Below, piece after piece: positions 31,896-58,685 of a stretch of DNA of 64,000 nucleotides. Made by a program: the position numbers and the translations under genes. This DNA is from Eledone cirrhosa (lineage: Eukaryota), in assembly GCA_964016885.1 (NCBI GenBank), contig OZ024753.1, positions 46,066,001-46,130,000 of the forward strand. Direction: 5' to 3'. Numbering within the stretch: position 1 is the stretch's first letter; each line of letters starts with the position of its first letter. The notes under the pieces were generated by a model, which did no database searches, was not told the origin of the DNA, and saw only the letters and a list, made by a program, of their open reading frames with translations.

Positions 31896-32009
<114 letters not shown>

Positions 32010-32304
32010 GTACATATATAGATATCTATATATATATATATATATATATGTATACGTACATATATAGATATCTATATATATATATATATATATACATACG
32101 TACATACATAGATATATATATATAGGGCCAAAAAAGACATTATGAAGTAAAAAGAAACCGCATTAAACATGGCAGAATCTATTCTAGCGTGTTCTACATG
32201 GTATGTCGTCCACCGGATTTCAATTAAAATTTCACAATGGTGTCACCCTAATCATTTCAACCATATTGTTCCACAGCACACACCTACCACCCTCCTTCAC
32301 TTTC

Positions 32305-32347
32305 ATCATATCATCCTCATCATCCTCATCATCATCATCATCATCAC

Positions 32348-32406
<59 letters not shown>

Positions 32407-33527
32407 CAATCATCACCATCATCATTACGATCCTCGTCGACGTCGTCTTAGTGTTTGGCAACAACGTCGTCGTTATCGTTACCGCCAGCCTCATGTTTCC
32501 ACATCTTTGTCATCACTATTACCATCACATGTCCCCCACCCCACCACCACCATTCCCGTCACCCTCCTCTTCATCAACGCCGTCTTCTTCCTTGTCAGCA
32601 CCATTCCCATCATCGATCGAACCATCCCTATCATCACCAGCAACATAACCATAATCATTTCCATTAAAACCTGAATCAACACCACCATCATCATCATCAT
32701 CATCATAGTCATCATAACTCTAACCCTAACCCTAAACCTCATCATCATCGCCACCACCACCACCTCCATCAACACCACCACCCTCATCATCACCACCATC
32801 ATCACCATCACCACCACCACCACCTCCATCAACACCGCCATCATCATCATCATCGCCACCACCACTACCTCCATCAACACCACCATCATCATCACCACCA
32901 CCACCATCATCATCACCACCTCCATCAACACCACCGCCATCACCACCACCACCACCACCTCCATCAACACCACCATCATCACCATCACCACCACCACCAC
33001 CTCCATCAACACCACCATCATCATCATCACCACCACCACTACCTCCATCAACACCACCACCATCACCACCACCACCTCCATCAACACCACCACCACCACC
33101 TCCATCAACACCACCACCACCACCTCCATCAACACCACCATCACCATCATCACGATCACCACCACCATCATCATCACCACCACCACCTCCATCAACACCA
33201 CCACCATCACCATCATCACCACCACCACCACCATCAACACCACCACCATCACCATCAATATCCCAATCACCATCTATTTAAGAGAAGACATTCTAATTAG
33301 GATCAGATCTCTGATCAACTTCACAAATACTGCAACTACTAAAACTAATATTACTACTACCACTACATCTAACACACCACCACCACTACTACCTTCTCTA
33401 CCACTACTTCCTTCTCTACCACTACCTCTACCACTATCTGTACCACGACTACCTTCTCTACCACTTCTACTACCATCCTTTCTAACCCCTTTACTGACAC
33501 CACCACCACCACCATTACTACTACTAC

Positions 33528-33559
<32 letters not shown>

Positions 33560-33563
33560 TTAA

Positions 33564-33604
<41 letters not shown>

Positions 33605-34260
33605 TCACTACACCGGGAAATGACACCCACCCCCTCACCATAAACGACATCATTTAATACTAGTTTGATCATTATACCATTCCCTCTTCTTCATAATCTT
33701 GACATTTATCAATACCACCACTACCTTCTCCCCCACTTCAATCAATGTTAGCTCCCCACCACCATCAGTACCTCCACGACTGCCATGACCATCACTACCA
33801 TCCTGACCACCTTCAGTATCACATGACAACCACCACCACAGCAACAATCATCACAACCCATGTCACCACCATAACCACACGACAACCAACACCTACACCA
33901 TCACCAACACCAACACAACCACTACCATCACCATCACCACCATTACCACACGACAACCATCACCACCATAACCACCAATACCATCAACACCACTAACACC
34001 ATCACCATCACCACGATAATCACCATCACCACAACAACCACCAATACTATCACCATCACCATCACCACGACAACCACCAATACCATCAACACCACCAACA
34101 CCATCACCAACACCAACACCAACACAAACACCAACACCAACACCAACACCAACACAGCCACTACCATCACCATCACCACGACAACCACCAATACCATCAA
34201 CACCACCGACACCACCTCCACCACAGGCAGCAGTAGACGACTTCCAAGCCATCCATCACC
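32305..34260. repeat. Compound (CAT)n/(CAC)n/(TAC)n low-complexity block
   Basis: Direct inspection; variable ...acctccatcaacaccacc... units at about 32750-33270. Confidence 0.9.
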
Positions 34261-34369
34261 AACACAATCAATAACATCACTTTCAACATAATTTTCGTCC
34301 AGTACCTTCGTATCGAACACTGACAAAAATCAACACCATCCCCAACACTTACTCCACCATCAGTGCCAC

Positions 34370-34945
34370 CACTACAAGCACCAGAACAACCACAACCACT
34401 ACAACTACCACCACCGTCACCACAACCAATACAACTACCATCACCGTCACCACAACCACTACAGCTACCACCAACATCACTACAACCACTACAACTACCA
34501 CCACCATCACCACAACCACTACAACTACCACTACCATCATCAGAACCACTACAACTACCACCACCACCACCATCACCACAACCACTACAACTACCACCAC
34601 CATCACCACAAATACTACAACTACCACCACCATCACCACAACCAATACAACTACCACCACCATCACCACAACCAATACAACTACCACCACCATCACCACA
34701 ACCAATACAACTACCACCACCATCACCACAACCACTACAACTACCACTACCATCACCACAACCACTACAACTACCACCACCATCACCACAACCACTACAA
34801 CTACCACCACCATCACCACAACCACTACAACTACCACCACCATCACCACAACCACTACAACTACCACCATCATCACCACAACCACTACAACTACCACCAC
34901 CGTCACCACAACCACTACAACTACCACCACCGTCACCACAACCAG
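34370..34945. repeat. 30-bp minisatellite, about 19 copies
   Basis: Unit ctaccaccaccatcaccacaaccactacaa. Confidence 0.92.
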
Positions 34946-34954
34946 GAAAACCAG

Positions 34955-35960
34955 TATAACCAGCAGTGTCACCACCACAACCACCAACCACCATAACCAG
35001 CAGTGTCACCAACACAACCACCAACCACCATAACCAGCAGTGTCACCACCACAACCACCAACCACCATAACCAGCAGTGTCACCAACACAACCACCAACC
35101 ACCATAACCAGCAGTGTCACCACCACAACCACCAACCACCATAACCAGCAGTGTCAGCACCACAACCACCAACCACCATAACCAGCAGTGTCACCACCAC
35201 AACCACCAACCACCATAACCAGCAGTGTCACCACCACAACCACCAACCACCATAACCAGCAGTGTCAGCACCACAACCACCAACCACCATAACCAGCAGT
35301 GTCACCAACACAACCACCAACCACCATAACCAGCAGTGTCACCACCACAACCACCAACCACCATAACCAGCAGTGTCACCAACACAACCACCAACCACCA
35401 TAACCAGCAGTGTCACCACCAAAACCACCAACCACCATAACCAGCAGTGTCACCACCACAACCACCAACCACCATAACCAGCAGTGTCACCACCACAACC
35501 ACCAACCACCATAACCAGCAGTGTCAGCACCACAACCACCAACCACCATAACCAGCAGTGTCACCACCACAACCACCAACCACCATAACCAGCAGTGTCA
35601 CCACCACAACCACCAACCACCATAACCAGCAGTGTCACCACCACAACCACCAACCACCATAACCAGCAGTGTCACCAACACAACCACCAACCACCATAAC
35701 CAACTGTATCACTAACACAACCACCAACCACCATAACCAGCAGTGTCACCAACACAACCACCAACCACCATAACCAGCAGTGTCAGCACCACAACCACCA
35801 ACCACCATAACCAGCAGTGTCACCAACACAACCACCAACCACCATAACCAACTGTATCACTAACACAACCACCAACCACCATAACCAGCAGTGTCACCAC
35901 CACAACCACCAACCACCATACCAGCAGTGTCACCACCACAACCACCAACCACCAACCACC
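34955..35960. repeat. 37-bp minisatellite, about 27 copies
   Basis: Unit ccataaccagcagtgtcacc(a/c)acacaaccaccaacca; the period is not a multiple of 3. Confidence 0.92.
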
Positions 35961-36029
35961 ATGACCTCTACCAACACCACAAACAATAAAAAGGACTTAA
36001 CGGGGGAGATCTATGTGGTAACGTGACAT

Positions 36030-42209: not shown

Positions 42210-42338
42210 CATAGGTGTGTGTGTGTGTGTATACATATGTGTGTGTGTTAGGTAATTCCAAAACAAGGGGAAAAAAGAGTGCTCTATGTATAGAAAAGAG
42301 CTATTTAATTAGAAAGTGAACAACACTAAATATAACTA

Positions 42339-42406
42339 CTCCATTACCAAAGGTTTCTGGATCCCAGACAATATTAATATACGTCTGGATCGTTCGTCAG
42401 ACAGAG
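42339..42406 (-). ncRNA. Type I hammerhead ribozyme (left arm of the palindrome)
   Basis: Minus strand ctctgt-CTGACGA-ac-gatccagac...gtctgggatc-ca-GAAA-CC-ttt-GG-TA-atggag; stems I, II and III pair. Confidence 0.8.
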
Positions 42407-42416
42407 ATGTCATCAT

Positions 42417-42486
42417 CTCTGTCTGACGAACGATCCAGACGTATATATTATTATCGTATGTGATCCAGAAACCTTTGGTAATGGAG
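42417..42486 (+). ncRNA. Type I hammerhead ribozyme (right arm of the palindrome; stem II partly decayed)
   Basis: CTGACGA 42423-42429, GAAA 42468-42471, stem III ACC-ttt-GGT, GUA site ending 42480, stem I ctctgt/atggag. Confidence 0.72.
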
Positions 42487-42513
42487 TAGTTATATTTTGT
42501 GTTGTTCACTTTC

Positions 42514-42559
<46 letters not shown>

Positions 42560-57390: not shown

Positions 57391-57560
57391 GTATTTTTAT
57401 AGTTGGTCAATCAATGATAAACATTGATTGCCAAATAAATTAACTATGGAGATATAAAAGATACAGAAGCGAAAACCAACCAAACAGTGAGTGTGTGCTG
57501 TTATTATTTCTGGCAATATTATTACAACAATATGACCCTCCCCAAGTATAACAATATATG

Positions 57561-57621
<61 letters not shown>

Positions 57622-57902
57622 GACTTTATTTTCTTATTTTTACGAAGTAACCATTTCCGTCTGCATAATACAGACATATAGATACATTTGCCCTAAATTT
57701 TTATAATTACGCACACTTTCTAACCATACATTTACACGTGCACATATACATATATGCACATCTATGAGCGTATATACATACACATACACACACCTAACTA
57801 TTTTTCTTGATAGATTTTTATATATTTCAATTTCTATTTCATTTATCTATATATTTTTTTGATTTTCTTGATGTGTTTTTCTAAGTATTTGCCCATGTTT
57901 TA

Positions 57903-57982
57903 TATTGCCTCGTCTGACGAACGAATGAAGTCGTTTATTTCGTATTCGCCTCATTCGGGAAACCTCTGGTAATGAGGTAATA
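57903..57982 (+). ncRNA. Type I hammerhead ribozyme, best-preserved copy
   Basis: Stem I tattgcctcgt/atgaggtaata (11 bp including 2 G-U); CTGACGA 57914-57920; stem II cgaatga/tcattcg; GAAA 57959-57962; stem III ACC-tct-GGT; predicted cleavage after A57971 (GUA). Confidence 0.85.
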
Positions 57983-58085
57983 ATATTGTATTGATTTTAT
58001 ACATTAAATTTTGCTCTGATATTGACATAGAGCACTCTTCATTTCTATGACCTTTTCTGTTTCTAACTGAAATTTCAATACTATG

Positions 58086-58685
<600 letters not shown>

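Follow-up and report, generated by a model that had tools for sequence, protein, structure and literature searches.

A hammerhead motif in the Eledone cirrhosa genome probably lies in the truncated 3' end of a Hydra-clade Penelope-like element

Identity of the feature

The type I hammerhead motif found in a 64,000-nt stretch of the Eledone cirrhosa genome (contig OZ024753.1, positions 46,066,001 to 46,130,000, forward strand; hereafter the window) very probably forms part of the truncated 3' end of a recently copied Penelope-like element (PLE) of the Hydra clade that sits in (TA)n and whose conserved hammerhead likely cuts the element RNA. The feature is accordingly a known class of mobile element and not a host ribozyme. 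A preliminary description, made from the sequence alone, had placed the motif in junk DNA at 57903..58080 and had named PLE pseudo-LTRs and metazoan retrozymes as its two possible homes. The setting is a different one and the extent was drawn too small, as positions 57622-58082 are the 3' end of a PLE. Full ORF-bearing units bear out the first of the two homes, and the second falls away because the motif belongs to the 3' end of an autonomous reverse transcriptase (RT)/endonuclease element and not to a tandem monomer of 170-400 nt. The features of the window that are used below are:

57554..57621, no strand: left (TA)n target microsatellite, from sequence
57622..58082, plus strand: 5'-truncated 3' end of the PLE (last part of the 3' UTR/pseudo-LTR, hammerhead and tail), 461 bp, matching the 3' terminus of the full unit at locus L031 with 99.1% identity (461 nt aligned)
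57903..57982, plus strand: type I hammerhead motif, from sequence, fold and covariation
58006..58082, plus strand: optional PLE tail of about 77 nt, between two fixed 3' ends at about 58005 and 58082
58012..58034, plus strand: 7-bp hairpin at the start of the tail, from folding, common to all related families
58083..58269, no strand: right (TA)n target microsatellite, from sequence
42249..42409, minus strand: truncated pseudo-LTR of a related family, F2, with hammerhead core and tail
42410..42519, plus strand: inverted partner of the F2 copy, with a core at 42423-42480 and no tail, ending in (TA)n

No remnant of an ORF is present in the fragment between the two (TA)n tracts, and without read-through from a host transcript this solo copy is probably inert. 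A short word precedes the left (TA)n tract (about 57520-57556), and since the same word stands before (TA)n in L035, L077 and L134, the PLE fragment probably lies inside the (TA)n end of another repeat. Directly after the right tract there is a MITE-like foldback of about 290 bp (58262-58550) with long inverted arms (58262-58315/58497-58550 and 58309-58375/58434-58500), a sequence similar to which occurs in L040.

The full element and its clade

A search of the species' own genome (3.0 Gb, 1,796 contigs) with positions 57880-58080 returned 1,514 candidates, of which 40 were scored, and all 40 were 99-100% identical to the query. For the whole window fragment the closest other copy is 99.8% identical, with a median of 97.6% over 49 alignments. 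The oriented loci share a fixed 3' end that is nearly always followed by (TA)n, their 5' ends are scattered, and in several copies an inverted 3' piece stands at the 5' junction. The full unit, reconstructed from thirteen 10-kb stretches, consists of a pseudo-LTR with hammerhead, a leader, the ORF, a 1.4-kb 3' UTR and a second hammerhead, and measures 3,679 bp from the first to the second hammerhead; full units occur both with direct and with inverted pseudo-LTRs. Its ORF is a 719-codon stop-to-stop frame (protein P0001) whose ATG lies 229 nt past the cut site. A stop-free full-length frame was found in nine of the 63 protein matches listed (62 of 91,805 candidates were scored), and dN/dS among the nine ORFs compared was 0.10-0.20 between subfamilies and 0.13-0.75 for the remaining pairs. 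Near-identical copies, intact ORFs and low dN/dS together indicate that the family is young and selected as an autonomous element. With its pseudo-LTRs, inverted 5' pieces, optional tail and 5' truncation, it displays the hallmarks of PLEs.

Assignment of the protein relied on motifs and structure. No Pfam domain was detected in P0001, and alignment A1 had no match when searched against PDB sequences. The AlphaFold model (pLDDT 82) retrieved telomerase RTs as its top seven PDB matches, at TM-scores of only 0.30-0.37; together with YRDD at residue 353, this fold similarity identifies a single ORF with a telomerase-like RT, as expected for a PLE. The protein further contains RWK44, DKT121 (replacing DKG), CxCX5C at 562-570, IVY581/YVG601, CxxC at 665-668 and CxH at 696-698. 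Among 8,000 scored candidates, 1,674 homologs were found, and the motifs named above are kept in 116-119 of 120 homologs. A GIY-YIG endonuclease is recognizable from IVY 581, YVG 601 and conserved R, H, E and N-like alignment columns; one homolog gives a weak Pfam GIY-YIG match, and because Pfam is silent on P0001 itself the endonuclease assignment relies on these motifs and homologs. The region between IVY and YVG is free of cysteines, the CCHH motif being absent.

In the definition of Craig et al. (2021; PMC8557442), the Hydra clade is marked by the RWK, DKT, CxCX5C and CxxC/CxH motifs, by the loss of CCHH, by insertion into (TA)n and by hammerheads at the 3' end. All of these are found here, with the CxCX5C in the linker and CxxC/CxH around the catalytic E/N, and to judge from these motifs, with published references compared by eye, the element belongs to this clade. 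It shares with the members described there the single ORF, the lack of an IFD, the C-terminal GIY-YIG-type region and a 3' hammerhead with a 9-nt stem III, and by eye the RT3-RT4 region of P0001 resembles that of Hydra-2_Amil (Fig. S1 of PMC8557442). It differs in having a GKKF word at residue 510, where that paper calls GxKF/Y not conserved N-terminally, and in its length, since published Hydra-clade elements are mostly under 3 kb (a tendency and not a diagnostic trait) and the present unit reaches 3.68 kb because of its long 3' UTR. A cephalopod member, Hydra-1_Obim of Octopus bimaculoides, is already published (PMC8557442); its hammerhead differs from that of the window, and it is annotated there with no pLTR and four copies ending at one site, whereas the present copies number in the thousands. 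The surprise value initially attached to the motif was therefore overrated, as the clade, its hammerheads and this Octopus member had all been reported.

The hammerhead motif

The hammerhead was parsed into the following parts, all on the plus strand:

57903-57913/57972-57982: stem I, 11 bp, two of them G·U
57914-57920: box CUGACGA
57921 and 57958: A opposite G, a mismatch at the base of stem II (10.1·11.1)
57922-57928/57951-57957: stem II, 7 bp
57959-57962: box GAAA
57962-57970: stem III, ACC-UCU-GGU
after A57971: predicted cleavage site (GUA)

The complete near-canonical core and stems of the preliminary description agree with both the sequence and the minimum free energy (MFE) fold, as does the non-canonical A/G pair that it saw closing stem II. 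The CUGANGA, GAAA and NUH boxes surround three stems of which stem I is open-ended, as in type I hammerheads, and for 57903-57982 the MFE structure, at -21.6 kcal/mol (z -2.2), has the three-way junction of a hammerhead; six of 200 shuffles did as well in energy. The centroid structure of the same segment is without stem III, which is marginal; its 3-nt loop is non-palindromic, so that dimerisation would add little. The canonical G10.1-C11.1 pair is replaced by A·G. The proposed check with Rfam hammerhead models gave no hammerhead family at E<=10 in 57860-58080, and none was present among the best 150 of 364 matches to the whole window, the matches listed being rejected as microsatellite artefacts. 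On this parse, the fold likely cuts the element RNA after GUA, although slowly.

Conservation and covariation among families

Exact core patterns, which by design choose intact cores, matched the genome 6,947 times (U7) and 4,390 times (C7), with one match each for the reversed-pattern controls, and thus the motif is not a product of chance. A strict pattern for the window's own family found 1,742 copies against none in the control, and the two core patterns, which are looser, together yielded at least 11,337 intact cores in related families against two control matches. A C precedes GAAA in only 152 cores (three control matches). In 136 distinct motifs from 21 clusters, 10.1·11.1 is paired in 33%, the most frequent states being A·G (29), C·A (25), A·A (24), U-A (19) and A-U (17). 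The next stem II pair is paired in 69% (C-G 49, U-A 40, C·C 35), and further out follow a near-invariant G-C (93% paired) and then an A-U (98%). At its first six positions stem I is paired in 88-98%; as the MAFFT alignment A2 had set this stem out of register in some families, it was counted by a core-anchored script and in alignment A3. Position 10.1 is A in all 100 matches listed for the window's own family.

All three stems covary across families. In 19 own-genome motifs, hand-chosen as cluster representatives, covariation of stems II and III was 0.294, compared with 0.156 in shuffled and at most 0.097 in slid alignments. Of 77 metagenome loci with Hydra-type ORFs, 39 carry a hammerhead-like motif, a few of them loose, and the best-formed, non-redundant 16 of these marine motifs together with eight from the own genome pair in 91.9% of cells and reach a covariation of 0.759 against 0.233 shuffled. 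The shuffle counts should not be taken as probabilities, since the rows were picked by hand and are related to each other, and kinship alone can let related sequences outscore shuffles without any structure. A core-independent sample is provided by 30 loci, some not independent of each other, that were anchored on the tail hairpin: seven end short of the GAAA box and 23 reach GAAAC..GGUA (19 exact, four with one change), and of the 18 that extend to the CUGANGA box 15 have it intact, with N7 free. At L166, one family cluster is linked to an ORF of 60% identity that begins 208 nt past its cut site. Core conservation and covariation among genomic copies, whose absence, along with a lack of cleavage, had been named as what would overturn the preliminary proposal, are thus both present, the invariant core and covarying stems are those of a type I hammerhead, and the proposal that the RNA structure was under selection is upheld by the covariation.

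An older subfamily (L084, L088, L093, L165 and L210) has a CCGACGA (U4C) core; this change may be tolerated, or the ribozyme may be dead although the lineage went on spreading. Together with the second mismatch in sister groups (C·C in 35 of 136 motifs), it could mean that selection on catalysis is relaxed.

The second locus within the window, at 42 kb, had been described as a copy of the same motif with a shared tail. The tail is indeed shared, as its word is found at 58026 (+) and 42277 (-) and nowhere else in the window, against 0.17 occurrences expected; the locus itself belongs to a separate family, F2, and is a head-to-head inverted pair. Its motif has two mismatches (A·A and C·C) under stem II, and the MFE folds of both halves (42249-42519) do not form a hammerhead. 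In F2 at large (42249-42519 of the window and L044-L063) a 2x2 mismatch, A/C·A plus C·C, lies under stem II. Many of its copies are tiny inverted pairs in head-to-head arrangement with the junction just 5' of the hammerhead, which is partly an effect of ascertainment. L142 is the one locus that links the family to an ORF (38% identity). Two F2 copies 4.1 kb apart on C2 were considered as the ends of one PLE and rejected, as no PLE ORF lies between them.

The stem II mismatch and known hammerheads

Hydra-clade hammerheads in File S2 of PMC8557442 have the same CUGANGA-N-Y-G...C-R-N-GAAA layout, a 3-bp stem III and NUA/NUU cleavage sites. By our own count 15 of the 25 families listed are mismatched at 10.1·11.1 (14 U·U, one U·C), the mismatch being followed by Y-R and G-C, and since the authors list these motifs as canonical the G10.1-C11.1 pair does not define the subtype. 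A purine·purine combination occurs in none of the 25, unlike the A·G found here and the A·A of sister families, which also have C·A; in addition, both stem I, with its 11 bp, and the arm of stem II exceed the published ones in length. The metagenome Hydra-type set shows G-C, U·U and, in one element, C·A at this position. The minimal hammerheads of other PLEs (Cervera and de la Peña, 2014; PMC4209133) are likewise of type I, located in pseudo-LTRs and provided with a long helix II, and as here many are solo truncated copies or opposite-strand pairs; in contrast to the present motif, their consensus keeps a conserved G10.1-C11.1, with one additional base on its 5' side, and helix III is either palindromic or missing. 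Among the 56 rows of that paper, as read from the text layer of the PDF, one carries an additional A ahead of GAAA; its place in the row order points to the Cotesia bracovirus PLE. The axolotl retrozyme hammerhead HHR_Amex2 also is of type I with a short helix III, and despite U·U at the base of helix II it cleaves, 22% in 1 h as a monomer and more as a dimer (PMC7229834). Metazoan non-LTR retrozymes are short non-coding tandem repeats (PMC7229834), whereas the element described here is autonomous and dispersed, and non-coding tandem monomers of about 170-400 nt, the mark of a retrozyme, are not found for it.

Only the purine·purine form of the mismatch looks new, the basal mismatch itself being already common as U·U. 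In the literature on octopus hammerheads and 10.1/11.1 substitutions, of which coverage was incomplete, nothing was found on this element family or on purine·purine closure; ribozymes are not mentioned in the passages of PMC13282606 consulted, and Lünse et al. may already cover such variants. It is rather unlikely that every part of the boldest reading holds, namely an active hammerhead variant in which a purine·purine mismatch or 2x2 internal loop replaces G10.1-C11.1 and invariant G-C and A-U pairs follow two steps out, missed by Rfam, present in more than 11,000 copies, still mobile, and circularising the element RNA for rolling-circle copying.

3' ends, pseudo-LTR junctions and the copied RNA

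Among 97 distinct ends of the family, 51 are long, 27 short, 18 continue into the ORF leader and one is of another kind; the two fixed 3' ends lie about 34 and 110 nt beyond the cut site. In the reconstituted Poseidon PLE the tail spans two internal RT start sites (PMC11167929), and the tail seen here would likewise lie between two such sites. The hairpin pattern at its start has 10,573 genome matches against none in the control, and the fold of the whole tail reaches a z of only -1.4; the hairpin is a candidate signal for protein binding or for the start of RT. The complete leader is preserved in 22 of 30 near-full copies, and the upstream pseudo-LTRs of these 22 extend 5' of the cut site in 17 cases and start downstream of it in five, with none beginning within 20 nt of it. 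The RNA that was copied was thus likely uncut or re-ligated at this site, in agreement with the Poseidon work, and linear RNA with a ribozyme-made 5' end cannot be the usual template. Between the 5' and 3' pseudo-LTRs of one insertion (about 250 nt) there are at most two differences in six of nine cases and 8, 8 and 27 in the others, a result that an uncut tandem transcript and a circle explain equally well. The upstream pseudo-LTRs of L065, L070 and L073 have 5' junctions 22-29 nt before the cut, at the stem II loop/3' arm, which suggests that RT stalls at the stem II hairpin.

The closest functional comparison is the Poseidon element PAc of Anolis (Frangieh et al., 2024; PMC11167929), a Poseidon element being the only PLE reconstituted so far according to that report. 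It resembles the present element in its optional tail, which lies between two RT start sites (presumed ones in the present element), in its AT-rich targets and in its pseudo-LTR hammerhead, and differs in clade, in an ORF that starts inside the hammerhead and in a tail of 30-40 bp. In vitro, its hammerhead was protein-assisted and dispensable for insertion. By analogy with this and other PLE work, the GIY-YIG domain would nick (TA)n, and the RT would start inside the RNA at either of the two sites, about 34 or 110 nt downstream of the cut, to give tail-less or tailed ends, and would usually drop off early, leaving copies such as the 461-bp one in the window. As both start sites are located downstream of the cut, cutting a linear RNA at its 3' hammerhead would sever them from the body of the element. 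The template would be RNA that is uncut, or re-joined, at this site, with cleavage slow or conditional and probably aided by the element protein or by a second hammerhead, so that cleavage would act as a late processing step, as an off-switch or as the maker of a 5' end 229 nt ahead of the next ORF and would not define the template. We consider the chances of an uncut linear template to be about even. A rolling circle, in which both hammerheads of a tandem transcript are cut, the 3.68-kb unit is ligated and the RT runs for more than one round, so that the upstream pseudo-LTR derives from the same template, is possible but on the whole somewhat doubtful. Such a route has been proposed for PLEs (PMC4209133), and it agrees with the 17 of 22 upstream pseudo-LTRs that cross the cut site with scattered lengths, with the small number of 5'/3' differences in six of nine insertions with at least 240 nt comparable (the median to other copies being about 4-10%), and with the private nature of the differences examined. 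Against it, an uncut tandem transcript predicts the same pattern, three of the nine pairs differ at 8, 8 and 27 sites, and uncut RNA was the main in vitro substrate of the Poseidon element (PMC11167929).

Two further readings would do away with cleavage or with autonomy. The motif might not cleave at all and be kept as a folded RNA signal for protein binding or RT positioning, or as a decaying ancestral ribozyme, which would fit the scarcity of C before GAAA (152 matches versus at least 11,337 cores), the double mismatches and U4C cores that extend over whole subfamilies, and the lack of 5' junctions at the cut site among the 22 upstream pseudo-LTRs. This is nevertheless improbable: the catalytic boxes, free N7 and NUH are conserved across families whose ORFs are only about 60% identical, the same parts are kept in Hydra elements from other animals, compensatory changes reshape stem II while the boxes stay, and cleavage persists in an axolotl hammerhead that has U·U at the foot of its stem II (PMC7229834). 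Finally, a non-autonomous retrozyme or SINE-like element that borrows PLE enzymes could explain why most copies are short and why the sister families F2, F3 and F6 share less than 500 nt upstream of the cut among the loci fetched. Yet the copies of the hammerhead's own family grade continuously into the full ORF-bearing unit, 5' ends are scattered and tandem 170-400-nt monomers do not occur, which makes this reading highly implausible for the motif; for its own family it is refuted by the intact ORF-bearing copies, while F2, F3 and F6 may be such elements.

Implications and other observations in the window

A Hydra-clade PLE that is young, retains intact ORFs and has two defined ends provides a substrate for asking what the hammerheads of PLEs do. 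The related families form a natural mutational series at 10.1/11.1 that could widen the hammerhead consensus and the descriptors used in searches. Host transcripts running through such copies might be cut by them, given the more than 11,000 intact cores that a single genome holds.

A GAAACC..GGTA word at 18892 was considered as another hammerhead and rejected, since it has no CUGANGA box upstream; just before it lies a short tandem repeat with a unit of about 22 nt (18780-18870). At 4404-4491 a near-perfect, GC-containing inverted repeat surrounds a (TA)n core and gives a spurious miRNA match in Rfam. Positions 32001-36000 show an extreme C-/A-rich strand skew (GC skew about -0.78) and probably represent a simple or minisatellite array.
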